Shown: positions 1 to 21,235 of the stretch, one piece after another | How the letters are laid out: each line of letters begins with the position of its first letter | Position numbering within the stretch: the first letter of the stretch is position 1 | DNA from: Fibrobacterales bacterium | GTDB lineage: Bacteria; Fibrobacterota; Fibrobacteria; Fibrobacterales; JAOPTW01 | NCBI GenBank assembly: GCA_051532055.1 | Contig: JAOPTX010000039.1 | Location: 1-22,531 of the forward strand | DNA length: 22,531 nucleotides | Reading direction: 5' to 3' | Notes under the pieces: generated by a model | Seen by the model: the letters and a program-made list of their open reading frames with translations, nothing else | The model's database searches: none | Told to the model about the DNA's origin: nothing | Position numbers and translations under genes: made by a program

Positions 1-1526
1 GGGAGTCGTATTTCTGCGGCTATCTTATTGCAAAAATCAGGGAGCAGGCTTCTGCCGTCCATACGTTCTGGCCTTGCCCCCAGCCCCAAGAGGATAGTTC
101 GAGTCCACCGTTCCAAGATAGTTCTATAGGTCTTGGCAGTCGCATGGTGTGCTTCATCCACAATGATATAGTCATAATAGTCATAGCCCACATTCTGTTC
201 GAAAAACTCTTTTTGAGAGTCAAAGGTCTGTACCGAGATAAAGAGATGATCAAGGTCTCCCTTGTTGGGTTGGCTCCCTCCCACCCAGAGTTGCCCAAAG
301 TCACTATGCTCTACTCCCAGTACCGACCGAAAGGTTCCCCGTGCCTGTTTGAGGATCTCTGCCCGGTGTGCGATAAAGAGGAGCTTTGCCTTTCCGGTAT
401 TCTCTTTGCGATATCGTTTATAGTCGAAGGCCGAAATGACTGTTTTACCGGTACCCGTTGCCGATACTACCAAGTTACGAAAGTGGTCATGTTCGGTTCG
501 CTCGACACTCATTTTTTCGAGCACTTCTTTTTGAAAGGGATACGGTGCTATCTGAAGGTAATAGTTGCGTTCGTGGTCTTTTACGGCAAGTCCATTAAAC
601 TCAGAGCGTACCTTCTCTGCAGAGAGTGCCTTTTTGAATCGTTCTATACCGCCCAGCTCAAAGTCTTCGAACTCATTGCTGTTCCAATAGTGATCGAAGG
701 TTGCTTTTGCCTTTTCAATAATATGGAGGTTCTCTTGTGACGTCACCCGAAGGTTCCATTCTAATCCTTTGGTCAGTGCAGAGCGTGACATATTGGATGA
801 TCCGATATACGCGGTATCGTACTCCGTATCTCGTTCAAAGATATAGCTCTTAGCATGGAGTCGTTCATGGGTCGTATTGTAGGAGATCTTGATCTTGGTA
901 TTGGGGAGTCGTGAGAGAAAGTCCAAAGCGCGGGCTTCCGTTGCCCCCATATAGGTTGTGGTAATAATCCGTATCTCTACATCATCTCGATGGCTTATCT
1001 CTCTGAGTATTTTTTCGAAAATTACGAGGCCCGACCAACGGATGAAGGACACTATCAGATAAATTCTATTAGCCGAGAGCATGTCTCTCTCAATCTCGGT
1101 ATCTATAGATATATCGGAGTTACTTCCCGTAAACAGTGTACTGGTAGTCAGTCCTGTTTGGGGGAGTTTTCTTTGGACCTCTGCTTTGAGTTGTAGATCG
1201 GTCTTCCCCAGTTTATTGAGAAGTGCGTAGAGGATGTTGCTCTCTTGGATTTTCATTTCGTCTGCAACGTCGAGAGAGAGTTTTTGATCGACGTATTGGA
1301 TGAGGTCATTGCAGAAGGTTATCTGGTGTTCTATGTCACTGCCGTTCTCTTGCTGGACTTTTAAGGCGAGGTGGAGGACTTTTATTATGTGGTTGGAGAG
1401 GATGGTTACGGCTTGGGATTTATCTACGGGCTTTTGATCTTTGTAGTAGGTATCGCATTCAGTGCTCTGTAGCTTTTTTGCTATGGAGTGGGTTATGAGG
1501 GTTTCGTAGATTCCTGGGGCGAGCAT
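1..1526 (-). CDS. PLD-family nuclease + SF2 DEAH helicase (DUF3427-type restriction-like protein), 3'-truncated by the window edge
   Basis: Absent from the ORF track because no stop lies in the window. Manual translation from ATG at 1526 gives MLAPGIYETLITHSIAKKL...VSFIRWSGL...ITTTYMGATE...RLHAKSYIF...AYIGSSNMSRSALTKGLEWN (PLD HxK...GSxN...E), LVVSATGTGKT (Walker A), AHRAEI, IVDEAHH, PERMDG and IAAEIRL. HAK, Walker A, DEAH and PERMDG were confirmed in frame with the ATG. The DUF3427 domain itself would lie outside the window. Confidence 0.88.
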   Translation of the reverse strand, partial: MLAPGIYETLITHSIAKKLQSTECDTYYKDQKPVDKSQAVTILSNHIIKVLHLALKVQQENGSDIEHQITFCNDLIQYVDQKLSLDVADEMKIQESNILYALLNKLGKTDLQLKAEVQRKLPQTGLTTSTLFTGSNSDISIDTEIERDMLSANRIYLIVSFIRWSGLVIFEKILREISHRDDVEIRIITTTYMGATEARALDFLSRLPNTKIKISYNTTHERLHAKSYIFERDTEYDTAYIGSSNMSRSALTKGLEWNLRVTSQENLHIIEKAKATFDHYWNSNEFEDFELGGIERFKKALSAEKVRSEFNGLAVKDHERNYYLQIAPYPFQKEVLEKMSVERTEHDHFRNLVVSATGTGKTVISAFDYKRYRKENTGKAKLLFIAHRAEILKQARGTFRSVLGVEHSDFGQLWVGGSQPNKGDLDHLFISVQTFDSQKEFFEQNVGYDYYDYIIVDEAHHATAKTYRTILERWTRTILLGLGARPERMDGRSLLPDFCNKIAAEIRL

Positions 1527-1633: not shown

Positions 1634-1652
1634 CTCAGGTTTGTGACCTGAG
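1634..1652. terminator. Perfect 7-bp hairpin downstream of the DRT3 ncRNA; possible terminator or processing stem
   Basis: CTCAGGT-ttgtg-ACCTGAG. On the minus strand it is followed by caatttc, only a weak U-tract. Confidence 0.3.
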
Positions 1653-1679
1653 ATATACAGTGATCTTCCACCATAATAT

Positions 1680-1826
1680 ATGCTGGCCTTACGTCTATGT
1701 GTGTGCAGAATTAACTGCTCTCATTCGCTCAACTTCTCAAACCGTCGCTTGTGAAGGGTATTGCTTTAAGTATATCAGCCATTTACTACAAGTAGCATAA
1801 GACTGCAGAAACGTAAGGCACAGCAT
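1680..1826 (-). ncRNA. DRT3-associated structured ncRNA with ACACAC template tract
   Basis: Begins immediately after the drt3b stop. Ends pair: 1680-1694 (atgctggccttacgt) with 1811-1826 (acgtaaggcacagcat), 15 bp with one bulge. Internal hairpins at 1784-1797, 1733-1756 and 1705-1718. The minus strand reads GCAG-UUAAUU-CUGC-ACACACA-UAG-ACGUAAGGCCAGCAU. Confidence 0.8.
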
Positions 1827-3773
1827 TTAATACGCCTGAAGAATAACTTTCTTTTCTATGCAATTCAAGAGATTGACCTCATCCCAATCAATAAACCATT
1901 TGTTTTTTTTCAAATATTGCAATTCTTTTTCAATTTTATCATTTGTGTACTTACCAATGTATTCTAGATGTATTTTCTTTAAAAGTTTTGTTTTTAATGA
2001 GTCATCTAAATATGGACAAGTTAAAGTGTCTAAAATGAAATAACAGGACTCAGCATGTTGCATCATATTATTTGAATGTTCTAAATCACTTGTAACTTTC
2101 TTTATAAGTACTTTTTTCAATCCAATATATTGTTTATCATTTTTAATGTAGAACAGAATACTCATTGCTTCAAAATACGATATTGAGGGCCTGTCTATGA
2201 AAAAGAGGGCATGTATAAAGTTTGAAGATAACAAATACTTTTCCCCTAGTGTTGACAACCCTAATATAATATTAATTTTCTCTAAAGGAATTGCTTCTTC
2301 AGTATGATTATTAGAGGCAAATACCTGTTGTTTTAAAACAAGAATGGCATGGTCTAAAATACACTGTTTGATCGTGTCAATCTCTTCCGGAAAATATTTA
2401 GCAAAATATTTTGGTACAACAAGCATAGCTTGGCAAAGTTTATATGAAGAATTCACCGTAGGGTTAATAGAATATATATAGAACATAACGTCTAACAATA
2501 TTCGAATATTGTCTCTATAAACTAATACTCCTTTTTCCCCTACAAAATATGGTTCGTGCGATAAAATTCTATCCAGTCTATTTGTAAAAGCACTAATCAA
2601 ATAGCCCCCAGCAATTTGAATTCCATTTTCTATGTTATAACATCTCGATTTGATAGTATTAATAAGGCTATGTTTTAATTTATTATAATGAAATATTCTT
2701 TTAAGTCTGAGTTGTTTTTCCTCGTCAAGTTCACTTACTTTGTTGTAAAATTCAGAAATATCATTTTTTAAAAAATGTATCAAATTTGACTGAAGTGAAA
2801 AGAAAGGACGTTCATATAAAACTGATTTACTTTCGTTAATATGATAATTATATCGCAATAAACAACTTCGAATCGTGTCTTTGATCAATTTAATTTCTGC
2901 ATCAGTATTAGCAAAAATAAAAAAATCATCTACATATCTTTTGAAAGAGTAATTCTCATTATACTCCAACCCTTTTTCCACAAGTCTAGACATTATGTCA
3001 GTATCAATACTTTGGAGAATTATTTCTGAGAAAATCCTACTTATCTCTGGCCCAATAACAATCCCATTAGTTTCTTTATAGTTAATGTCTTGCATTAACT
3101 CATCAAATGAATTCACAAAGCTAGATGAAGAATTAAGATTGTGCTTAATGAATTCTTTTGAGCGAACTGCCCATGCAATACTATGAGTGTAAATACTGTG
3201 AAAAAATTTAGTTATATCAATTTTGTAATATTTTGAATACCGTTTCTCTAACAATAAAAATTCTTCTGAATTGAAAAATTTATAGAGTCTATTATATCCA
3301 CGATAGGCAAAATATGAAGATGGATGCCTTGATAATGCATCTTCTATTTTTGTATCAACTAAATCAGATTTATATTTCCCACTTTCCGAATAAGGATTAT
3401 TTACAAATGACATTGAACCAATTTTCTCTGGAGCACGAATCGAAGCTTCGCTAACACTTGCAAAATGACAAATCAGGTTTTCAAATTTTGAATAAAATTC
3501 TATACACTGTATTTGATTTTTAGGGTGTATTAATGAAAGGTGACGCAAACTATCTGGCCCATTTTTAATTGAATAGCCAAATGGTTTTGAATAGCGCTTA
3601 AAATTATTTTTCGAATTAATGCCTGCCAATATTTTATACAGAAATGAATATTTATGCTTTATTTGAAAATAAAACCCTTCATTCGAAAAATTGACTGGCA
3701 CTTCAAAGGGGAAGGATTCAGACAAAACAACCCTTTCAGCATCACCTCTATTTATATGAACTTTTTTAGCCAT
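1827..3773 (-). CDS. drt3b: Antiviral reverse transcriptase Drt3b (UG8 class)
   Basis: 648 aa. N-terminal ERVVLSESFPFEVP, RHLSLIHP, KIDITKFFHSIYTHSIAWAV, ETNGIVIGPEISRIFSEIILQ, RYVDDFFIF (Y280-D283), long helical C-terminus ending WFIDW...QAY. Overlaps a second RT gene by 8 nt. Confidence 0.92.
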   Translation of the reverse strand: MAKKVHINRGDAERVVLSESFPFEVPVNFSNEGFYFQIKHKYSFLYKILAGINSKNNFKRYSKPFGYSIKNGPDSLRHLSLIHPKNQIQCIEFYSKFENLICHFASVSEASIRAPEKIGSMSFVNNPYSESGKYKSDLVDTKIEDALSRHPSSYFAYRGYNRLYKFFNSEEFLLLEKRYSKYYKIDITKFFHSIYTHSIAWAVRSKEFIKHNLNSSSSFVNSFDELMQDINYKETNGIVIGPEISRIFSEIILQSIDTDIMSRLVEKGLEYNENYSFKRYVDDFFIFANTDAEIKLIKDTIRSCLLRYNYHINESKSVLYERPFFSLQSNLIHFLKNDISEFYNKVSELDEEKQLRLKRIFHYNKLKHSLINTIKSRCYNIENGIQIAGGYLISAFTNRLDRILSHEPYFVGEKGVLVYRDNIRILLDVMFYIYSINPTVNSSYKLCQAMLVVPKYFAKYFPEEIDTIKQCILDHAILVLKQQVFASNNHTEEAIPLEKINIILGLSTLGEKYLLSSNFIHALFFIDRPSISYFEAMSILFYIKNDKQYIGLKKVLIKKVTSDLEHSNNMMQHAESCYFILDTLTCPYLDDSLKTKLLKKIHLEYIGKYTNDKIEKELQYLKKNKWFIDWDEVNLLNCIEKKVILQAY

Positions 3774-4977
3774 TAGCCCAACAACCCCTGATTTTATACA
3801 ATTCAGTAGTACTGAATTTATAATATATTTTTTCTTGGAAACCTTTTGAAAAGGAATATTTCAGTAGATTTCGTTTTTTAGTGTCGCTGAGTTCTTCTGG
3901 AATGCCAACATATTTTCTACAACTTGTTAAAATTGTTGCCTTCAAAAATCTATCTAAACATTCAAGGCAAGTAAAATCATTAACATATTTATAATTAAAA
4001 TATATCCCTGTATTTATGTTCTTATCCATCTCTCTATTAAATACTGCATAATTACTAGTTATCATTTTAATTCTATCTTCAAGCAATTCAAAGTCGGGTT
4101 GTTGATAATATGAATAGAATGATTTTATAATTTTGGTCTTAAATTTATTGATTTTTTTTGGTGAAATAGAAATAGAAACTTTTCTAGAAGAGTCTTTGTT
4201 TGTATGGTTTGACGCCTTAAAGTGATAACCTAAATATTCAAACTCTGAAAACAGTTCTTTTTTCTTGTTTGAAACTACATCAGATACCAATGTAGCAGTA
4301 CATTTTTTATTATTGTATTGCAAACCATTTGGCAGCTTATATTGTTTTTTAAATAGCCTTAAATCTCTATTATCATTCAACAAAACAATAATATCATCAA
4401 CAAATCTTGAATGGAAAAAAACATTTTTATCTGTTGAAATTGAGTCATCATATTTTGACAAAATATATTCACCAAGAACAGCACTTACGGACAACCCTCT
4501 TGGCAACCCTTTAAATCCCTTACTTGAATAAAAATCAAAAACCGATTTTAATAGATCAACAGTTGTCCTTGAGATAGTAGGGTCATTGTGAAATATTTCA
4601 ATAATTGACTCCACATTTACTGATTCATAAAAACTCTTTATGTCCAGTCTTACAATTGTGTATGGATAATCTTCACATATTAGATTTATTAAATTGGATA
4701 CAATTATGTCTCTATTTTGTTGTTTCGCTCTTGTTACATTCTTCAAGTTTGAAGCAATCTTTCTTAGAACTAATTTATCGGATAATCTTTCAGGGTGATG
4801 TACACTTTTCCCATTCCGCTTGTGCATTAAAGAAACATACGAATCGTTAAAACCTGATTTTGATCTTTCAACAGCCAAAGAGACTATAGCATCTACTTCC
4901 TTAAATATTTCCACATCAAAATCACCGTTTCTGAAGCAGTTTCTTAAAGCTCGATCTGTAAATGACTGTCTGATCAT
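3766..4977 (-). CDS. drt3a: Antiviral reverse transcriptase Drt3a (UG3 class)
   Basis: 403 aa. RT motifs RLDIKSFYES, GLPRGLSVSAVLGE, RFVDDIIV, FEYLGYHF, plus C-terminal DRIKMITSN...GIYFNY typical of Drt3a. Its stop overlaps the drt3b start (ATGGCTAA). Confidence 0.92.
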   Translation of the reverse strand: MIRQSFTDRALRNCFRNGDFDVEIFKEVDAIVSLAVERSKSGFNDSYVSLMHKRNGKSVHHPERLSDKLVLRKIASNLKNVTRAKQQNRDIIVSNLINLICEDYPYTIVRLDIKSFYESVNVESIIEIFHNDPTISRTTVDLLKSVFDFYSSKGFKGLPRGLSVSAVLGEYILSKYDDSISTDKNVFFHSRFVDDIIVLLNDNRDLRLFKKQYKLPNGLQYNNKKCTATLVSDVVSNKKKELFSEFEYLGYHFKASNHTNKDSSRKVSISISPKKINKFKTKIIKSFYSYYQQPDFELLEDRIKMITSNYAVFNREMDKNINTGIYFNYKYVNDFTCLECLDRFLKATILTSCRKYVGIPEELSDTKKRNLLKYSFSKGFQEKIYYKFSTTELYKIRGCWANG

Positions 4978-8967: not shown

Positions 8968-10161
8968 TTAACCTTTTAACAAAAGAAGCCCTACATTACA
9001 CATCCAGACATAAATATCATACTTCCAAACAAACACCATTAAAGTTACTATAAAAACCCACACAGTACCCATCTTTATTATCGCAACTTTTCTTAGTTGT
9101 TTAGGCAATATTTCGTTCTGCTGACAACTAAGTTCTTCATATATCTCTTCAAGATTTAAATCACCACTTATCTTATCTCTAAATTTTTCAATATCTTTTT
9201 CAATCGCTTCAAACCCTTCTTCTAAATTTTTAATAAACACAAACCAAATAAAAATAAAAAATATGGCCCCCAACAGAAAAAAACCTGTATCTTTAACAAC
9301 ATCAATTTCCGAAAAACTCATTCTTGTTAATAGGAATATATAGGCAATGGGTATTAAAAATATCGAATTTGCCTTACTATTTATTGTTTCATATAATTTA
9401 TCTGTAAGGGAATGGAAATACTCTGTGGAAGCAGTCTTTATTTTATCAAAAGAAAAACCCGACAAATATAAAGAAAAGCTTTTATCATAGTTATATAATA
9501 ATATATCCCAATTTTTGATTAGACATTGAAAGGTCGCATCACGCCCATTTAGTACATTGATCATTTCATTAATGAAAATAAGACGTCTTTCTGCAGAATC
9601 AGGTCTATCCGAAAGTTCTTTTTTAATATCACCTATTCTATCAATTCGATTAATTAAATCAATTTCACAATATTCTATTTTTAAAGACAACCCCTGCCCG
9701 TGTTGGAAAAAAAACAATTCTACATCACCAGAGCTCTTCTTCTGATGATCTGAATTTTCGCATAAAAACTCTATTAATTTCAATATTGAATAATAAGCTT
9801 TAATTTTTTCATTTGACCCTTCCTCCTCCTCAAAATATTCTAATTCATGAATATAAAACCCAGGTTGATTTACTTGTATTTTATTACCATTAATGAAATC
9901 AGTTAATTTTTCATAATAAGGCAAGCTTGATGGAGAAAGAACAATTTGGACCCGATCATTTAGCTGAAGTTCTGCTGGATCAACAATTGCGCAATTATTA
10001 TCACCAAAAACTTCCCTCACACAATCATCCCATAGATTCTTTAAATTTTCTATGTCATCTTCACTTAAGGAAAGTATAAAACCATTCACAACTCCAATTG
10101 TAAATGTTACGTTTTCTAAACGTTTTCGAATTGCGATAAATTTATTCAAACTTTCAATCAT
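8968..10161 (-). CDS. Hypothetical membrane protein (soluble N-terminus, three C-terminal TM helices, coiled coil)
   Basis: 397 aa. Contains YLSGFSFDKIK, TM segments IFLIPIAYIFLL, FFLLGAIFFIFIWFVFI and VWVFIVTLMVFVW. Overlaps the upstream gene by 8 nt (ATGATTGA). Confidence 0.8.
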   Translation of the reverse strand: MIESLNKFIAIRKRLENVTFTIGVVNGFILSLSEDDIENLKNLWDDCVREVFGDNNCAIVDPAELQLNDRVQIVLSPSSLPYYEKLTDFINGNKIQVNQPGFYIHELEYFEEEEGSNEKIKAYYSILKLIEFLCENSDHQKKSSGDVELFFFQHGQGLSLKIEYCEIDLINRIDRIGDIKKELSDRPDSAERRLIFINEMINVLNGRDATFQCLIKNWDILLYNYDKSFSLYLSGFSFDKIKTASTEYFHSLTDKLYETINSKANSIFLIPIAYIFLLTRMSFSEIDVVKDTGFFLLGAIFFIFIWFVFIKNLEEGFEAIEKDIEKFRDKISGDLNLEEIYEELSCQQNEILPKQLRKVAIIKMGTVWVFIVTLMVFVWKYDIYVWMCNVGLLLLKG

Positions 10162-11140
10162 TTAGTAAGTCATCAATTTTTTCTTGTGGAACATTCGTGA
10201 TAGTCACATTATTCTTTTCAATGACAACTTTACTAGTTTTAAGCAACTCCTTATCAAATTCTAATTTATATCCTTTCTCACTAATAGTTGCCTTGTAAAA
10301 ATATTTAATATCTGACTTCTTCGTTATTCTAAAGTTTCCACTAACATGTAAATCGTCATTCATTTGAACATAGTCTATAAAATCGCGTGGTAATTCATGA
10401 TTTACATAAGAAGATATTGCATCAAGAAAAACATCTTTATCTTCTAGTCTCGATTTATCCATGTACTCAAACACATCTTTATTTATCTTGTCCTTTAACT
10501 CAACATTAAATTCTTTTTCCTTCATATATTCTTGCATGGCTTTTTTAAGGCTATTACAATTTGAGGTTGAGGATGCCAAGTCAGTGTTACCAATAAATTT
10601 TTGAAAATATTGGGATACATCTCTTGTTCCCTTAATGAAGGCTAAATAGGAGTCATCCTTATTAATCCATTTTGACAAATTAATTCTATTAGCACGTGCT
10701 AACTTTTCTATATCAAGGGTTTTAAGTACAGCAATATTTAAATTTTTATCATCGATCGTAAACTGCTCTGATTTATCTAGCATCATTGTAACAAGAAATT
10801 CAGCCTTTCCTTCTTGATAGTGAACAAATACCACATACCCACCAGTTGTCCCATGGACATCTATTTCCTTTTCCAATAATTTCATCGAATCGTAAGTGAA
10901 GTCAAAAAAGCCATCATCTTTTAAATATTTTTGTACATAACTTTGAAAAGGGTACGCCTTAGAGTCACTATGGAACATACCATAAGTTGGATTTTTGGTT
11001 TTAAACACCCTCACTAGCCTGTCTACAAATCCCATTACAATAATATTTTTCTCATCTAAGAGTTTCTTTGAATATTTTGATTCTAGCCTAGAATCAACAT
11101 CTTTAATTATATGGTGTAATACAATTTTTTTTAATATCAT
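10154..11140 (-). CDS. Nucleoid-associated protein, NdpA/YejK (NA37) family, accessory homologue
   Basis: 328 aa. MILKKIVLHHIIK start, TTGGYVVFVHY, LDIEKLARANRINLSKW, YLAFIKG, VSQYFQKFIG are characteristic YejK/NdpA blocks. RBS-like TAAGG lies upstream. Confidence 0.82.
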   Translation of the reverse strand: MILKKIVLHHIIKDVDSRLESKYSKKLLDEKNIIVMGFVDRLVRVFKTKNPTYGMFHSDSKAYPFQSYVQKYLKDDGFFDFTYDSMKLLEKEIDVHGTTGGYVVFVHYQEGKAEFLVTMMLDKSEQFTIDDKNLNIAVLKTLDIEKLARANRINLSKWINKDDSYLAFIKGTRDVSQYFQKFIGNTDLASSTSNCNSLKKAMQEYMKEKEFNVELKDKINKDVFEYMDKSRLEDKDVFLDAISSYVNHELPRDFIDYVQMNDDLHVSGNFRITKKSDIKYFYKATISEKGYKLEFDKELLKTSKVVIEKNNVTITNVPQEKIDDLLND

Positions 11141-11164: not shown

Positions 11165-14100
11165 TTATACCAAACAAACCCGTTCATCAACATCCGAAAC
11201 AGCCTTCTGCTGTATCAAACTATCAAGCTGCCCTTGCAATATCCCAACCATAGCCCCAGTAACCCTAGAAAACCCCAGCCTCGAAGCAACCTCAGAAAAG
11301 CAAGCCTCAGGTCTAACACTCACTGACTCTTGAATCACCACAAGCAACGCCTTCTGTATCTCACTAAAAGGAACAAGCTCCAACTTTTTCTCACTACTCG
11401 GCAAGCTCTGTCTATTACGAACGACAACTTCATTCCTTGGATTTTCAATAAACGTTCCATCATATGCATATCCATGTACCGAAGATATTTTAGTAGCAAT
11501 CTGATTCATTCGAGTCTGTATTTTATTCCCACATCGAGAAATCCCCGCTGTAGATAACAGCCTATTTATTACAGCCTTAAGAGAAACCGGGGACTCAATT
11601 GAAACAACCTTAATTAAAGCATTCCCAATATCCTGATCACTCACTTCACTAAAGTCGCCAGTAAAAGACCAATAGCTGTATTGAGACAAATCTGCCATCT
11701 TGTAAGATTCCATCTCAGGCTTTACATGCTCAATACTACTCCGAGATATATTAGGTCCAACTTGCTCTACTGTTGGGGCTTTACGCACTACTTCCAATGG
11801 TTTAGATAATTCCTTTTCAATTCTCTCTTTTAGGCGGATAACTTCCCTATCACTATTCCTAAACCAGTCCGTACTCCATATTCTATGAAACACCCACCCT
11901 TTACTTTCTAGAACAGCTTGTCGTAATCTATCACGATCCCGCGCATTTGCACTAGAATGATAAGACGCACCATCACATTCTACCGCCAACATGTATCGCC
12001 CTTTCTTCCGAGGGTCTACCACTGCTAAGTCAATAAAGAACCCTTGACTCCCTACCTGAGGTACGACTTCATAGCCAAGACCTTTAATTGCATCATAGAC
12101 CGCCTCTTCAAAAGGACTATCCATTTCTTTACCCGTTTCATGCTCAACGGTATGGTTACCCGTTTGAGCATATTTGAGAAAAGACTTTAGTACCTTAACC
12201 CCAATAGGGCTTGTTTCATTCGTACGCATGTCATCAGCCGTGAAGTTACTAAATATTTTCATATGCTGCTTAGCACGACTGATCAATACATTCAGCCTCC
12301 GCTCACCACCTACGTTATTTATTGGACCATAATTCTGAGAGAGAATACCTTCTTCAGTTCTTCCGTAACCGATACTGATATAGATGACATCACGCTCATC
12401 ACCCTGTACGTTCTCAAGGTTTTTAACAAAGAAGCTCTCGCCACCAGGCGATGAGTTTAAGAATTCTTCGAGCACCTCATGTTTTCGTCTCAATATTTCC
12501 ACTTCCAAAAGTATCGCTTCTTTCTGTGAGATACTAAAGGCAACTGCCCCTAAGCTCAAATGCGGATACTCTTGAGCATGCTTTAATATCGCTAAGGAAA
12601 GATGCCGCGCTTCTTCTCTATTAGTCCGTGTAATACCTTTATCATATACGGTATCCGGTAAATACTCAAGAGCAAGCCCTTCGATCTCTGCAGAAGCCCC
12701 AGAACTCGGGAATACTTTAAGCTTTCCTCCATAAAATTCTTTATTTGAGGTCATGATAAGTGATTCATGTTTCGATCGATAGTGCCACTCCAACATCACC
12801 TCTGGAGTACCTTGCGCTAAAAACAGCCCCAATATACTCTCTATCTCTGCGGTAACATCATTTTCAAGATCATCATCTTCAACATCAACGCTTCGTGACA
12901 TAAACGTTGTAGGTGGCATCTGTTTACTATCCCCCACTACCACTGTCTGTTTACCCCGACAGATTGCCCCAATAGCATCAGGAACCGTTACCTGAGATGC
13001 TTCATCAAATATGACCAAATCAAATTGTATGTTACTATTCTGCAAATAAGTCGCCACCGACATAGGGCTCATCATAAAAATTGGTTTAGACTTAAGAATA
13101 GCACCGCCAGAAAGCTCAAGTAGCTTCCGTACAGGCAATAGACGACGCTTTTTATTCATTTCACGCCTAAGGACTTCCATTTCTCCGGGAGCGTGTATAT
13201 TTGGTAATTCCTTATAGAGCTTATCTACTAATGTTTCCTGAGCAAAATTAAAGCTCTGTGAGTCAAGATCTTTGAACTCTTCTATAGCCCCTTCATGGGC
13301 AACCCTATCAAAGTGTTTTAATTGTTCGGACCCACTATAGTATTCATTTACCACAGAAGCCCAATATTTATACCAAATACAGTGATACAAAGCATCTCCG
13401 GTATGTGCCCATGTTTTAACAAATGCCGCTAACTGAGGTAATCCTCTGCTTGCAAAACCTTCAATTATTTTATTAAGCCGAGTCATGTTATAGAGCTCAC
13501 TCATAGAATCACGCCATACAGGAAGAATAGACTGTACATCACTAATCAATACATCAGCTTGAATTATCTGAGCGGTATCTGGCAGATCTAACAGCCCCTG
13601 CAATTCCCCGAGCCACTCTGCCCATCGGCTTGTTTTTTCTACCAACTGCGCCAAATCAGTACTGAGATATTTAAAATCAGCACCTCCATCTAATAAACTA
13701 ATCAAACTCTCCGGTAACTCACCCTTTCCTATTTCTCCATGAAGAGCAAATATCCATTCAGCAAGTCCGGTGAGTACACTCCAATCAGATTTCTCACCCT
13801 GCCACTGAACTCCAAAGAGTGTGCTTAATAAATTTTCTTGAAGCTTCCACTCTTTGTCTTTCTCCTTTAACTCAAGTAACCTATCTACCCATTCAAGGTA
13901 GTGGGTACTCTCCTTAGGCAATGAATTGACACACAGGGACTGTAACCGCTTTTTAGCCTTTCTATAGTCACCAGAAAGGAACTTCCACCATTTATCTACT
14001 TTACCCAGCAAGCTACCGCGTATTTCAAGCAATGCTTGATCACTTGAGGTGGTAAAAGCCTGCGCTATAAACTGCTCTTTACATACCGCCCGTAGTTCTG

Positions 14101-15916
14101 ATGCAGATTTTCCTTGTTCGAGGGTTGTACTAATAATAGAACTGCGGTCACTCCACTCATGAGTATTAACTTTAACCCCTGATAATTGAGGTGCATCAAT
14201 TGCTCTTTGCGCCGCCTTAATCACCCCTTCGAGTTGAGATACTTTAACAATAAGGTCGAGATGCAGTTCTTTAGAAAGGGACTGTTTGAGTAGATCTATA
14301 CCACTTATAAGTTCAATACCCGCTGATATTTTTTGTGCAATCTCTTCTTGTAACACCGGACTTGCTTCAGCTAATGTTATTTCTCTAAATGGATGTACAT
14401 TAGGCACTCCCATAGCATCAAGATGTGTAGAAAGTGTTTTCAGCTCTATATCGAGATCGCTTAATTCTTCCATGCCCTCATTAGAATGTGTTATGAAGGT
14501 TATATCGGGAATATCAATGCCTTGTATGTGGGAAGCATGCTTCATAAACTTACCCAATGCAGTGATATAATTAACCCCTAAGGAGCCAATAGGTGCACTC
14601 ACCGATTTCACATACTCATCTAAATTCTGGCGTACATTTGAAAGCCTCTTCCTCTCTAATGTACGATGGGGTATTTCTGGCTTCGGCTGATAGAGTACAT
14701 CCCTGAGACTATCAAGTACCTGCTTAGGCCTACTCATATGAGAATGCAGTTCTAATACAGCGCCTCCCAGATGGCATTCGTCCAAACGGTGCTTTACCAC
14801 TTCAAGAGCGGTAAGCTTTTGTGCAACAAACAGCACCTTTTTATCACGAGCAACGGCTTCTGCTATCAGATTAGTAATTGTTTGGGATTTGCCCGTACCT
14901 GGAGGTCCTTGAATGACAGTATTCGCCCCTTTCAACACACTCGATATGGCAAAGGTCTGAGACGAGTCTGAATCCTTTACTAAATGAAGTCGTTCGGGTT
15001 CCTTTACCTCAACATTGCCACCCTCACTCAAAACACCATCGAGTATCTCACCATCCCTCACAAAGCCATCTTTAAAGAGTGAACGAATAACTGAATGGTT
15101 TTCTAAGGACAGGTCGCCCTGCCAATTTTTTGGATCAAGGTCCTTGTACATTTGAAACTTACCAAAAGAGAAAAAGCCCAGTTCAATCTTATTTTCCAAA
15201 ACAGACCAGCGCTCTAGTGCACTGATTGACTCTGTAACTGCCGCAAAGTACTTCTGTATCCCTTCTTCTTTTTCAAAATAGTCTTCAAATCGTGGTAATT
15301 CTACTCTATAATCGTTCTTAAACTTGGCAATCAATGTCTCATTATTCGATAACTCTATACCGGTATAGCGAATTTTAAAGCCTGCTTGGGAGTTTTTACG
15401 ATACAGCTCTACAGGCAATAATATTAGTGGTGCAAATCGTTTAACTTTCGAAGCATCAGCTTCATACCACTCTATAAAGCCAATAGCAAGATAGAGAATA
15501 TCTATGCCACGTTCTTGATAATACGCCTGTGCCTCATTGTCAATTTTAAGTAATCGTATGTCGAGCTTATCAGCGTGGAGTTGTGTTTGTAAGTGCAAAT
15601 CCTCAAACCGCTCATCTCCCATTGAATCACTAAGATACTCTTGTAACGGTGGAAGTTTTTCATAGTCATCAGGAAGCTCACCCTTGGCAAGTATTTCCTC
15701 TTCTACCTTGTACGCATCGGGAACAGGCAAAAAGGACATTGCCTTGCCTTGATTGATCAATATGTCAAATATCGAATCTGATTTTTCATCTACGACTGAT
15801 ACAGATTTATGTCCCCTTGGCTGAAAATGCAGGAGTGTATTACCTCGTATACCGAGATCAAGAAGCTTAATTCTAATTCGTTCTATCTGATCATTTATCT
15901 TATTCTCTTCTACCAT
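11165..15916 (-). CDS. DUF4011 - SF1 (UPF1-like) helicase - Vsr/MTES_1575-like nuclease - DUF3320 protein (Hhe-type anti-phage protein)
   Basis: KLLDLGIRGNTLL and LYLAIGFIEW...APLILLPVEL (DUF4011); DSDSSQ, IQGPPGTGKSQTITN, MMSPMSVA, IFDEASQ, VGDSKQMPP, HYRS, NLENVQGDERD, RRLNVLISRA (helicase); SPFEEAV...IDLAV...ECDGASYHS...RDRLRQ...GW...RIWS (nuclease). Start placed at ATG 15916 (MVEENK, preceded by AGGA); the track ORF extends to 15970. Confidence 0.9.
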   Translation of the reverse strand: MVEENKINDQIERIRIKLLDLGIRGNTLLHFQPRGHKSVSVVDEKSDSIFDILINQGKAMSFLPVPDAYKVEEEILAKGELPDDYEKLPPLQEYLSDSMGDERFEDLHLQTQLHADKLDIRLLKIDNEAQAYYQERGIDILYLAIGFIEWYEADASKVKRFAPLILLPVELYRKNSQAGFKIRYTGIELSNNETLIAKFKNDYRVELPRFEDYFEKEEGIQKYFAAVTESISALERWSVLENKIELGFFSFGKFQMYKDLDPKNWQGDLSLENHSVIRSLFKDGFVRDGEILDGVLSEGGNVEVKEPERLHLVKDSDSSQTFAISSVLKGANTVIQGPPGTGKSQTITNLIAEAVARDKKVLFVAQKLTALEVVKHRLDECHLGGAVLELHSHMSRPKQVLDSLRDVLYQPKPEIPHRTLERKRLSNVRQNLDEYVKSVSAPIGSLGVNYITALGKFMKHASHIQGIDIPDITFITHSNEGMEELSDLDIELKTLSTHLDAMGVPNVHPFREITLAEASPVLQEEIAQKISAGIELISGIDLLKQSLSKELHLDLIVKVSQLEGVIKAAQRAIDAPQLSGVKVNTHEWSDRSSIISTTLEQGKSASELRAVCKEQFIAQAFTTSSDQALLEIRGSLLGKVDKWWKFLSGDYRKAKKRLQSLCVNSLPKESTHYLEWVDRLLELKEKDKEWKLQENLLSTLFGVQWQGEKSDWSVLTGLAEWIFALHGEIGKGELPESLISLLDGGADFKYLSTDLAQLVEKTSRWAEWLGELQGLLDLPDTAQIIQADVLISDVQSILPVWRDSMSELYNMTRLNKIIEGFASRGLPQLAAFVKTWAHTGDALYHCIWYKYWASVVNEYYSGSEQLKHFDRVAHEGAIEEFKDLDSQSFNFAQETLVDKLYKELPNIHAPGEMEVLRREMNKKRRLLPVRKLLELSGGAILKSKPIFMMSPMSVATYLQNSNIQFDLVIFDEASQVTVPDAIGAICRGKQTVVVGDSKQMPPTTFMSRSVDVEDDDLENDVTAEIESILGLFLAQGTPEVMLEWHYRSKHESLIMTSNKEFYGGKLKVFPSSGASAEIEGLALEYLPDTVYDKGITRTNREEARHLSLAILKHAQEYPHLSLGAVAFSISQKEAILLEVEILRRKHEVLEEFLNSSPGGESFFVKNLENVQGDERDVIYISIGYGRTEEGILSQNYGPINNVGGERRLNVLISRAKQHMKIFSNFTADDMRTNETSPIGVKVLKSFLKYAQTGNHTVEHETGKEMDSPFEEAVYDAIKGLGYEVVPQVGSQGFFIDLAVVDPRKKGRYMLAVECDGASYHSSANARDRDRLRQAVLESKGWVFHRIWSTDWFRNSDREVIRLKERIEKELSKPLEVVRKAPTVEQVGPNISRSSIEHVKPEMESYKMADLSQYSYWSFTGDFSEVSDQDIGNALIKVVSIESPVSLKAVINRLLSTAGISRCGNKIQTRMNQIATKISSVHGYAYDGTFIENPRNEVVVRNRQSLPSSEKKLELVPFSEIQKALLVVIQESVSVRPEACFSEVASRLGFSRVTGAMVGILQGQLDSLIQQKAVSDVDERVCLV

Positions 15917-15966
15917 CTGTATTCCTATCAAAATGTCTCTACGAGAAATTATTCTATTTGTCACCA

Positions 15967-16326
15967 TCAACCATCACAAGCACACCCAACACTCTTATGA
16001 CAACTCTTCCAGCGCGCAATACAACTATTCCCACACGCCTTCCCCTTTTTACAAACCTTACAACAGACAATCACCTCACTACCGACCTCACCACCGACGT
16101 CATCATCAACCCCTACCTCAGATCCACCACCATCCAAGCTATCAGCCTGAACCGCAACAACCTTAACCGGAGCAACCGTACGAGTCAAATACGTATCTGT
16201 CGGCGCACCATGACAATGAAACCCACCAGTCTTGCTATTATTATGACACCCATCAGCATTAGTCCCCCCTCCATGAGAGAACCCCGTAACCGAAAGCATC
16301 AATACTACTATTACCATCGTTATCAT
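15967..16326 (-). CDS. Small secreted YHYH-like protein with C-terminal Cys-rich module
   Basis: Signal peptide MITMVIVVLMLSVTGFS, then HGGGTNADGCHNNSKTGGFHCH, an acidic Gly/Val linker and CCKVCKKGKACGNSCIARWKSCHKSVGCACDG. Start placed at ATG 16326 (GGAG upstream); the track ORF begins at 16404. Confidence 0.75.
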   Translation of the reverse strand: MITMVIVVLMLSVTGFSHGGGTNADGCHNNSKTGGFHCHGAPTDTYLTRTVAPVKVVAVQADSLDGGGSEVGVDDDVGGEVGSEVIVCCKVCKKGKACGNSCIARWKSCHKSVGCACDG

Positions 16327-18159: not shown

Positions 18160-18558
18160 GGTTGTAATAAGATTTACCGCAGTATGTATGTAATCAAGCT
18201 GACATGTTGCCCTGCACTCAAATCCGGAAGCATATCTCAGCAACAATACAGTACAGCTGAGGGGGGCAGGAATTTTGTGTACATAGATTTAATCTACAGG
18301 GGGATATTCAGACTGAATCAATAATGAGTATGCCCGTGACACTTCATGATTTCTTTAAATGTATTCTTGTCCACTGTAACGGGTGAAGTGCTACCGAACA
18401 TTGCAGAATGGTTAGCCTACACGGCTCCAGATAACCGTACCACACGAGAAACCTTATGGATTCAGTGGAATAGTACCTGTCCCACGGCGCTCCAAGGGTG
18501 ATACACGCCACATATACTCTGCGACATACAACAACTGCTTGCTCATTGGTAGAGCTGG

Positions 18559-18908
18559 GCAGAGGGCCCACGCTTAGAATTTTTGGTAGTCGGATAGGTT
18601 TTTTGGCCATCGGCTCACTTGCAATTACCTAACGGATGGCTGCAGAGGGCCTCCGCTTGGTTGCAATTGCCTATTACATGACTGCAGAAGGCCTCCGCTT
18701 GGTTGCAATTACCTATTACATGACTGCAGAAGGCAATCGGATGAGTGCAGAACGTAATCGGCTAAAGTTTTTTGAGGACTCTATGAATGCAGAACGCAAT
18801 CGGCTACAGTTCTTTGAGGACTCTATGAATGCAGAACGCAATCGGCTACAGTTCTTTGAGGACTCTATGAATGCAGAAGGTGATCGGATAGGTTTTTTGA
18901 TGGTTTCG
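18559..18908. repeat. Tandem array built on 21/42-nt units
   Basis: 42-nt type A units at 18636 and 18678, a 21-nt unit at 18720, 42-nt type B units at 18741, 18783 and 18825 (the last two identical), a degenerate unit at 18867 and decayed units at 18559-18635. Units share ATGrnTGCAGAr. Confidence 0.9.
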
Positions 18909-19117
18909 CTTAAAGCGTTTGAGTCTGCATGGGTTACAAGGGGGGCGGATACGTTCCCGAGGGTACGCACCTATGCAGAAAAGGGTGCGACTGGGTAATT
19001 GACCCAAAAACGTACATAGCCAGCAGAAATTGGACAATCCCCAAGCCCTTTAGATAATGATCCGTCGGTCGAGAACCCCTTCCCCCCGGAATTAAACTCA
19101 CTCCCCCGAACAAATAG

Positions 19118-20413: not shown

Positions 20414-21235
20414 ATGGAAAGCATTTTCAACTATCTTGATTACCAGGAGTATCTAAAAGATATTTTTGAAATTATGCGCAAAAATGAGCCTGGCTTCACT
20501 TTAAAACTGGTTAATCACGAAATCAATGCAACATCGAGCGGGTTTATTTCAAATGTGATGGCGGGGAGAAAAAACCTGACCCATGCGCAGGTACCAAAGA
20601 TTAGTAAACTCCTTAAGCATACCAAAAATGAGAAACGCTATTTTGAAGCACTCGTCTATTTCACTCGCGCAAAAAATTCAGACGATAAAAAACACTACTT
20701 TAATACAATGGTCTCCTTGCAAAAGCTGAAGCTTAAGAAAATTGATACTCAATGCCTGAGCCTTTTTTCCGAGTGGTACTATGTATGCATACGTAATATT
20801 TTGAAAGTGTATAAGTTTAATGGGAACTATAAAGCATTGGCGAAAAAAGTCACCCCTACTATAACAGAGAGTGAGGCACGGAAATCTATCGAATTACTGT
20901 TAGAGCTCGGTTTTATTAAAAAAGGTGGACACCTTGGCTTCACTTTAGTTGACCCTGTAATAACTACAGGTGATGAGGTGAAGTCATTTTTTCTGAAACA
21001 GTACCATAAGGCAATGTTGAACAATGCGCAAGAAGCTCTTGATTCGATTTCTGCTAAAGAGCGTGATATGTCAGTTGTTTCACTAACGTTATCTGAGGAG
21101 ACCTATAAAAAGGTGAAGAGTGAGGTGCAACAATTAAGAAAAACTATAATGAAACTCACCGAAGAAGATAAAAAACCCGACAGAGTGTATACTTTGAATA
21201 TGCAACTCTTTCCTACTTCACAAAAACTACTATAA
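20414..21235 (+). CDS. TIGR02147 family protein (HTH + DUF4423)
   Basis: IFNYLDYQEYLKD, SSGFISNVMAGRKNLT, YFEALVYF, FSEWYYVCIR, ERDMSVVSL, VYTLNMQLFP are typical blocks of this Fibrobacter/Bdellovibrio-expanded family. Confidence 0.9.
   Translation: MESIFNYLDYQEYLKDIFEIMRKNEPGFTLKLVNHEINATSSGFISNVMAGRKNLTHAQVPKISKLLKHTKNEKRYFEALVYFTRAKNSDDKKHYFNTMVSLQKLKLKKIDTQCLSLFSEWYYVCIRNILKVYKFNGNYKALAKKVTPTITESEARKSIELLLELGFIKKGGHLGFTLVDPVITTGDEVKSFFLKQYHKAMLNNAQEALDSISAKERDMSVVSLTLSEETYKKVKSEVQQLRKTIMKLTEEDKKPDRVYTLNMQLFPTSQKLL

Follow-up and report, generated by a model that had tools for sequence, protein, structure and literature searches.

The closest described relatives of the locus reported here are the DRT3 systems of Escherichia coli. 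Their Drt3a copies the tract 5'-ACACAC-3' of a non-coding RNA (ncRNA) into poly(dTdG), and mutation of the tract abolishes both product and defense; Drt3b makes poly(dCdA), primed on its own terminal Tyr, and the two strands anneal (PMC13174585). Supplied with all four dNTPs, E. coli Drt3a enters the adjacent stem-loop 4, a read-through that truncates its products, and without Drt3b the products stay short (PMC13174585). Accumulation of the duplex is restricted by RecBCD, and lambda Gam acts as a trigger of abortive infection by E. coli DRT3 (PMC13174585). The same study defined the E. coli ncRNA experimentally and found that terminal FLAG tags abolished defense; of the 14 ncRNA mutants of E. 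coli DRT3, at least ten are loop point mutants. For DRT3, a telomerase-like template boundary has been described in which two flanking stems are anchored by the reverse transcriptase (RT), with Drt3a Y419 taking part (10.64898/2026.06.29.735271). Its role in DRT3 was deduced from structure and from the analysis of read ends; DRT10 served for tests by stem truncation and inversion, and there truncation led to read-through (10.64898/2026.06.29.735271). In the UG3+UG8 ncRNAs, sorted into groups 1-17, Mestre et al. (2022) described an exposed 'CACACA' motif and took it as a binding site (PMC9226505, the main text of which contains no 'Fibrobacter'). The published DRT3 covariance model was built on 41 systems.

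We analyzed a stretch of 22,531 nt (the window) on contig JAOPTX010000039.1 of assembly GCA_051532055.1, from a Fibrobacterales bacterium. A preliminary description, made from the letters alone, had proposed that a 147-nt segment behind drt3b is the template RNA of a DRT3 system, and had referred to the copying of ACACAC by Drt3a, which is indeed in print with poly(dTdG) as its product (PMC13174585). Our data support the proposal. At the locus both RT genes, drt3a and drt3b, are intact, and the segment behind them folds stably, with an ACACA(CA) tract predicted to be open and, immediately 5' of this tract, a hairpin that covaries. Comparison with homologs and with the E. coli system makes it very probable that the minus-strand RNA 1826-1680 is the DRT3 ncRNA of this locus and that it would work by the E. 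coli mechanism. The locus is a divergent member of the published DRT3 system.

The two RT genes are adjacent in one operon, with whole frames that overlap by 8 nt. drt3a (3766..4977, minus strand) encodes the RNA-templated RT, 403 residues with an FVDD motif at 193-196, and matches the NCBIfam Drt3a model (358.7 bits; cut-off 200), PADLOC (E 6e-117) and PDB 9z6y_A (E 1.6e-54). drt3b (1827..3773, minus strand) encodes the protein-templated RT of 648 residues, which scores 592 bits against NCBIfam Drt3b (cut-off 350), matches chain H of PDB 9z6y, and shares 227 identities with E. coli Drt3b over 627 aligned residues. E. coli residues E22, R71, D182, F187, R241, YVDD and Y666 map to E24, R77, D186, F191, R246, YVDD 280-283 and Y648, and the gate and priming residues (E24, R77, R246 and Y648) are all kept. 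The E. coli complex of Deng et al. 2026 is reportedly a 6:6:6 assembly (reviewed in PMC13314766 and PMC13213688). Among the comparison loci described below, one on an E. coli plasmid (CP083496.1; L033:1801-3844) has drt3b annotated as two pieces, and the gene is whole in the related L143.

The host genome is 5.17 Mb in size with 39.6% GC; drt3a and drt3b together have 29% GC. They belong to a minus-strand defense island with a ProA/Hhe-like helicase, a DS1-like pair, a Ser/Thr kinase, a PD-T7-3-like gene and a type IV restriction-like gene. The last of these, a PLD-helicase gene at 1-1526 (minus strand), is cut by the contig end and has 46% GC against 29% for the DRT3 genes. Between 5149 and 8790 (minus strand) lie the PD-T7-3-like gene, the kinase with a long N-terminal domain, and two small proteins of 129 and 160 residues without family match. 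The DS1-like anti-phage pair at 8968-11140 (minus strand) comprises a YejK-like nucleoid protein and a membrane protein, both below cut-off, and the 1601-residue helicase at 11165-15970 (minus strand) matches PADLOC PDC-S37, and NCBIfam ProA below cut-off. Farther along, an imperfect tandem repeat at ~18550-19000, with a 14-residue unit recurring in both frames, has the lowest folding energy among 448 sampled 147-nt windows, and a TIGR02147 gene, of a family named for paralogs in Fibrobacter succinogenes and thus pointing to Fibrobacterota, occupies 20414-21235. A full-length drt3b was found in one of the 296 genomes of the phylum searched, namely this one; the 295 others held no second DRT3, the one other genome of the genus does not contain the island, and the phage collection searched gave no Drt3a match. 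Long AC/GT arrays in the host genome, considered as a target or an integrated product, were rejected, since none of at least 8 units is present. The host also carries GreA, a RecC family gene that passes its cut-off and, next to it, a RecB-like gene that does not; RecC/RecB-type proteins and GreA are host factors tied to E. coli DRT3 (PMC13174585).

The segment was said to start at the base after the drt3b stop, and it does: the TAA occupies 1829-1827 on the minus strand and the predicted fold begins at 1826, the first base past it. Folded as minus-strand RNA, this core (1680..1826, minus strand; putative ends) reaches -49.6 kcal/mol with a z-score of -4.29, which none of 200 shuffles equaled. 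A plus-strand RNA was rejected, as it folds less well (z -2.52; 3 of 200 shuffles as good) and would be antisense to the operon. The proposed 15-bp terminal stem (1680-1694/1811-1826) is likewise recovered, with one bulged base at 1820, and on the minus-strand RNA it extends to 17 bp, 1826-1809 pairing with 1696-1680. The two arms (5' arm 1809..1826; 3' arm 1680..1696, minus strand) pair at -26.1 kcal/mol, and the 5' ends of the 79 other loci include none as good for this 3' arm. Such specificity is moderate across the family, in which the own partner is best in 27 of 80 loci, and weak for some true members; in E. coli L142, 33 of the 79 others are as good. The three internal hairpins of the preliminary description are also predicted. 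Inner stem-loops A (1776..1805, minus strand) and B (1720..1770, core 1756-1733, minus strand) appear in both the minimum free energy and centroid structures, and the third hairpin, GCAG-UUAAUU-CUGC (1705..1718, minus strand; pair probability 0.99), is the candidate template boundary. It is preceded by a conserved GA and occupies a place equivalent to E. coli stem-loop 4.

The template tract ACACAC(A) (1698..1704, minus strand) lies, as described, between this hairpin and the closing stem, adjoining the hairpin's 3' side. The preliminary description had given it as an unpaired ACACACA on the plus strand. ACACACA is the minus-strand sequence, the plus strand reading TGTGTGT, and only ACACA (1704-1700) is predicted to be open (probability unpaired 0.92-1.0). 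The remaining CA (1699-1698) has a pairing probability of ~77% in the ensemble, the sixth base of ACACAC (1704-1699) being predicted weakly paired, and forcing all seven bases open costs 1.3 kcal/mol. Behind the core, two 7-bp hairpins (1675-1656 and 1652-1634; 1634..1675, minus strand) are a possible 3' extension or terminator. In one shallow metatranscriptome (0.22 of words), nine short contigs of depth ~2-4 cover parts of drt3a, drt3b and neighboring genes; of the eight listed, none lies over 1680-1826, and bins 1541-1980 have no depth. These data, which comprise assembled contigs only, count neither way, because contigs can show neither absence nor the ends or level of an RNA, and DNA was possibly present in the library.

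To place the RNA in its family, we drew on genomes, plasmids, E. coli chromosomes, metagenomes and viral contigs, with one search contributing the best 80 of 432 matches. The 144 records comprise 143 loci and the Fibrobacterales locus. Of these, 114 retain the Drt3b C-terminus, and removal of three with short downstream sequence and one copy of the Fibrobacterales locus left 110, which reduce to 82 non-redundant loci, the Fibrobacterales locus included. Of these 82, 80 have an ACACAC no more than 300 nt behind the drt3b stop, compared with 3/82 on the opposite strand and 1/82 in the last 300 nt of the gene. Within the window the hexamer alone is at chance level (6 copies against 6.86 expected); the weight of the tract therefore comes from its position and its conservation. 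Among the 80 loci, 62 carry ACACAC, 11 the 7-nt ACACACA and 7 a longer form, and the six tract bases have a mean probability of being unpaired of 0.73-0.83. On either side, bases -2 to -4 from the tract are predicted to pair with 5' partners (~0.7) and bases +12 to +15 to pair back to the 5' end (~0.8). L142 is the characterized E. coli system, with a 667-residue Drt3b and the published residue numbers; its downstream sequence agrees by eye with Table S3 of PMC13174585, and its predicted fold topology is that of the Fibrobacterales RNA.

Several loci depart from this arrangement. In L069 (4175-4390; identical in L071, L073 and L074) the sequence between intact stems is ACACUC, alongside a Drt3a with YVDD and a Drt3b with all residues intact; the change reflects either natural variation of the template or inactivation of the copy, and the four assemblies may be one organism. 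Behind the drt3b of L086 (4154-4430), an ncRNA resembling that of L081 breaks off before the boundary hairpin and tract, through either an insertion or a mis-assembly. Nine short-form loci (L032, L033, L035, L038, L040, L041, L134, L135 and L137) have the tract only 24-67 nt past the stop; several share AUGGYUGU upstream, a separate ncRNA architecture. In L050, L066 and L121 a second CACACA-like tract follows 70-80 nt behind the first.

The hairpin directly 5' of the tract covaries across DRT3 loci. As a structure-blind anchor we took the nearest upstream GAG, which is present in 55 of 80 loci and absent from 25. All four hairpin pairs form in 26 of the 55 anchored loci, against a mean of 10.1 and a maximum of 19 in 5000 shuffles, counts whose significance is overstated because homologous loci are related. 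Pair 4 forms in 33/55 (21.2 expected) as G-C, U-A, A-U or C-G, and pair 3 in 45/55 (38.9 expected), a value reached by 23 of 5000 shuffles; pair 2 shows no excess (29/55 against 29.3) because a subgroup bulges a C. A sequence-only MAFFT alignment took in 70 of the 79 other loci, leaving out the nine short forms (tract <90 nt from the stop). Here 74.6% of hairpin cells pair against 66.5% in shuffles (0 of 500 as high), the register having been seen in a slide control before the test; all slid registers are lower, and a structure line two columns off gives 52.5% paired and no signal. A MAFFT alignment of the whole RNA from 50 loci, at 25% column identity, was too poor to model, and where the closing stem starts at its 5' side, as read from the folds, was too noisy for use. 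A covariance model built from the 70 loci, with the Fibrobacterales locus excluded, found its best match in the window at 1689-1740 (21.7 bits, E 9.6e-5; next 8.7 bits). Among the 150 of 305 genome candidates that were scored, it again ranks first (E 0.02, the runner-up at E 0.19). Minus-strand folding and a covariance model, both proposed as checks in the preliminary description, came out in favor of a template RNA, and so did the conservation of stem and tract, the lack of which was to refute it.

By analogy with E. coli, these features suggest the following mechanism. Drt3a would hold the two stems on either side of the tract by their bases, read ACACAC 3' to 5', and halt at the hairpin's basal pair, G1718-C1705. 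It would then slip back by one dinucleotide on the AC microhomology and so produce poly(dG-dT), while Drt3b, with Tyr648 as primer and with Glu24 and Arg246 as its gate, would make poly(dA-dC) without a template. Both strands would anneal, and build-up of the duplex during a phage infection in which host nucleases such as RecBCD are blocked would stop the infected cell. The RNA itself would come from a sigma-70 promoter of its own that overlaps the end of drt3b, as comparison between loci suggests.

The hairpin as a telomerase-like boundary, also anticipated in the preliminary description, agrees with the flanking-stem model published for DRT3 (10.64898/2026.06.29.735271). By analogy with DRT10, the hairpin would be necessary. 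It is probably not sufficient, because E. coli Drt3a reads into stem-loop 4 without Drt3b. That same read-through, in which the stem alone does not hold the boundary (PMC13174585), favors a reading that keeps the tract as template but leaves the stopping point chiefly to protein contacts and to the pairing of Drt3b's poly(AC) with the product, the hairpin serving only as a handle. The hairpin base, however, lies at zero distance from the first A, with the anchored G pairing with position -1 in 54 of 55 loci, partly by construction (the G is given by the anchor, and 78/80 loci have C or U at -1), and truncation of the DRT10 stem gives read-through (10.64898/2026.06.29.735271). We regard the handle reading as unlikely, although it keeps real weight; it concerns the boundary step only and is compatible with the template RNA reading that we prefer.

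How the RNA is transcribed can be approached from the sequence around the drt3b stop. An extended -10 motif (TGnTAnnnT) occurs near the stop at 22 of the 80 loci; shuffles average 5.3 (maximum 13), and a control stretch gives 5. Under a site scoring scheme of our own, 42 of 82 loci have the -10 box of their highest-scoring sigma-70-like site at +3 to +8 past the stop, a span that makes up 6 of the 80 positions scanned. Seventeen bases upstream of that box lies the Leu codon of a C-terminal [KR]EL. When the codon is located by pattern, 45 of 66 loci use TTG, where 11.1 would be expected; when it is located by alignment column, 54 of 69 do, compared with 7-25% at 27 other conserved Leu columns. 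In E. coli, TATTTT stands at +4, six bases before the RIP-seq 5' end at +16 (5' end from PMC13174585). These data suggest that DRT3 loci probably carry a sigma-70-like promoter across the drt3b stop, with its -35 box supplied by the conserved Leu TTG. No mention of an internal promoter was found in the passages on promoters of PMC13174585 and PMC9226505, relative to which it is new; Deng et al. 2026, Gao et al. 2020 or supplementary figures may state it.

The Fibrobacterales locus is without the family promoter at the usual place. Among 120 Drt3b proteins, 110 have EL at a position where this one alone has VI, and the best-scoring site lies 24 nt upstream of the family position. This candidate (1840..1868, minus strand) consists of TTGAAT (1868-1863), a 17-nt spacer and TATTCT (1845-1840), the latter spelled by V-I-L codons, with a predicted start near 1833. 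It is weak, with 8/12 consensus positions in AT-rich DNA, below the 9/12 threshold of a separate promoter scan, which called 3 promoter-like sites against 2.6 expected and no terminator. Because the site reaches only 8/12 in such DNA, we treat a promoter shift of ~24 nt upstream as a hypothesis, somewhat more likely to fail than to hold. More tentative again is the broader proposal that DRT3 ncRNAs are independent genes, with a promoter in the last drt3b codons and the Leu kept as TTG to serve as -35 box. As part of that proposal, the shift would have changed the Fibrobacterales protein tail from K-E-L to K-V-I and let the closing stem begin at the stop codon. Since that stem starts at the first base past the stop, terminating ribosomes would open it on a polycistronic message, a point against the template RNA reading.

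The missing family promoter also bears on whether this copy is active. A true DRT3 ncRNA by descent could now be silent or decaying, and make no DNA: it has neither the TTG codon that usually forms the -35 box nor a -10 box at +3 to +8, the candidate site in their stead reaches only 8/12, the island looks recently acquired (29% GC against 39.6%, and not in the other genome of the genus), and Drt3a has Asn at the site of E. coli Y419. The last point concerns Asn402, in WANG against the C-terminal WKYV of 9z6y_A; we took Y419 to be the Y of this terminal WKYV, its number obtained by subtracting the internal His tag. Across 75 loci the site is Y in 34, H in 17, N in 14, absent in 8 and D in 2, and the E. 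coli L142 Drt3a ends before it. With such variation Y419 is not a defining residue. FVDD, the majority form of Drt3a, occurs in 85 of the 120 relatives listed, and both it and Asn (14/75) were rejected as signs of decay, being common natural states. Against silence, moreover, both frames are whole, the tested Drt3b residues are all kept, the stems are perfect and the tract is intact. A silent copy is thus improbable, and an active template RNA is the reading we retain. A merely structured 3' UTR or terminator region with an AC tract by chance, which would suit the hexamer count and the lack of any Rfam match over 1400-2200 (E up to 10), has a negligible chance of being correct and is already refuted by the conservation counts; against it, the tract lies behind drt3b in 80/82 loci, the homolog model ranks 1689-1740 first, no intrinsic (U-tract) terminator was called behind the core, and the E. 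coli RNA is experimentally defined (PMC13174585).

As a discovery the locus adds little, because the template (PMC13174585) and the boundary (10.64898/2026.06.29.735271) are published; the RNA and its template and boundary logic appeared between 2022 and 2026, so that the first reading was right but is not new. What the locus offers is a compact and divergent example whose boundary hairpin is minimal, at 4 bp, from a phylum with a full-length drt3b in only 1/296 genomes searched, which makes it a handy test case for boundary mutants. The promoter, if it exists, has a practical consequence, as the RNA would be lost when drt3b is recoded or given a C-terminal tag. Such a loss may have contributed to the failure of defense in E. 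coli DRT3 with terminal FLAG tags, a failure that the C-terminal priming Tyr explains as well.

Overall, the nearest counterpart of the Fibrobacterales RNA is the 161-nt ncRNA of E. coli ECOR12 DRT3 (Wang, Yoneyama et al. 2026, PMC13174585). It occupies the same place behind drt3b, has a closing stem and three inner stems with ACACAC directly 3' of the last, and is accompanied by enzymes with the equivalents of E22, R71, R241 and Y666. Outside the tract the two RNAs share no alignable sequence: the boundary stem is 4 bp here and long in ECOR12, the tract is ACACACA here, and the closing stem starts at +1 after the stop rather than at +16. The Fibrobacterales locus also has no clear terminator, and its Drt3a carries FVDD instead of YVDD. 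For both proteins the closest solved structures are those of E. coli DRT3 (PDB 9Z6Y/9Z6Z), which hold the same template motif; relative to 9Z6Y, the stem-anchoring Y419 (WKYV) is replaced by N402 (WANG). As in the UG3+UG8 ncRNAs (PMC9226505), the motif is conserved and exposed at a variable distance from the RT, with no likeness elsewhere. DRT10 ncRNA and telomerase RNA are alike in placing a short template between two stems, of which the 5' stem is the boundary, and in a reset by microhomology (10.64898/2026.06.29.735271). The Fibrobacterales system is nonetheless not a member of DRT10, from which it differs by its RT group, the absence of a SLATT effector, a dinucleotide repeat and a second strand made by Drt3b.
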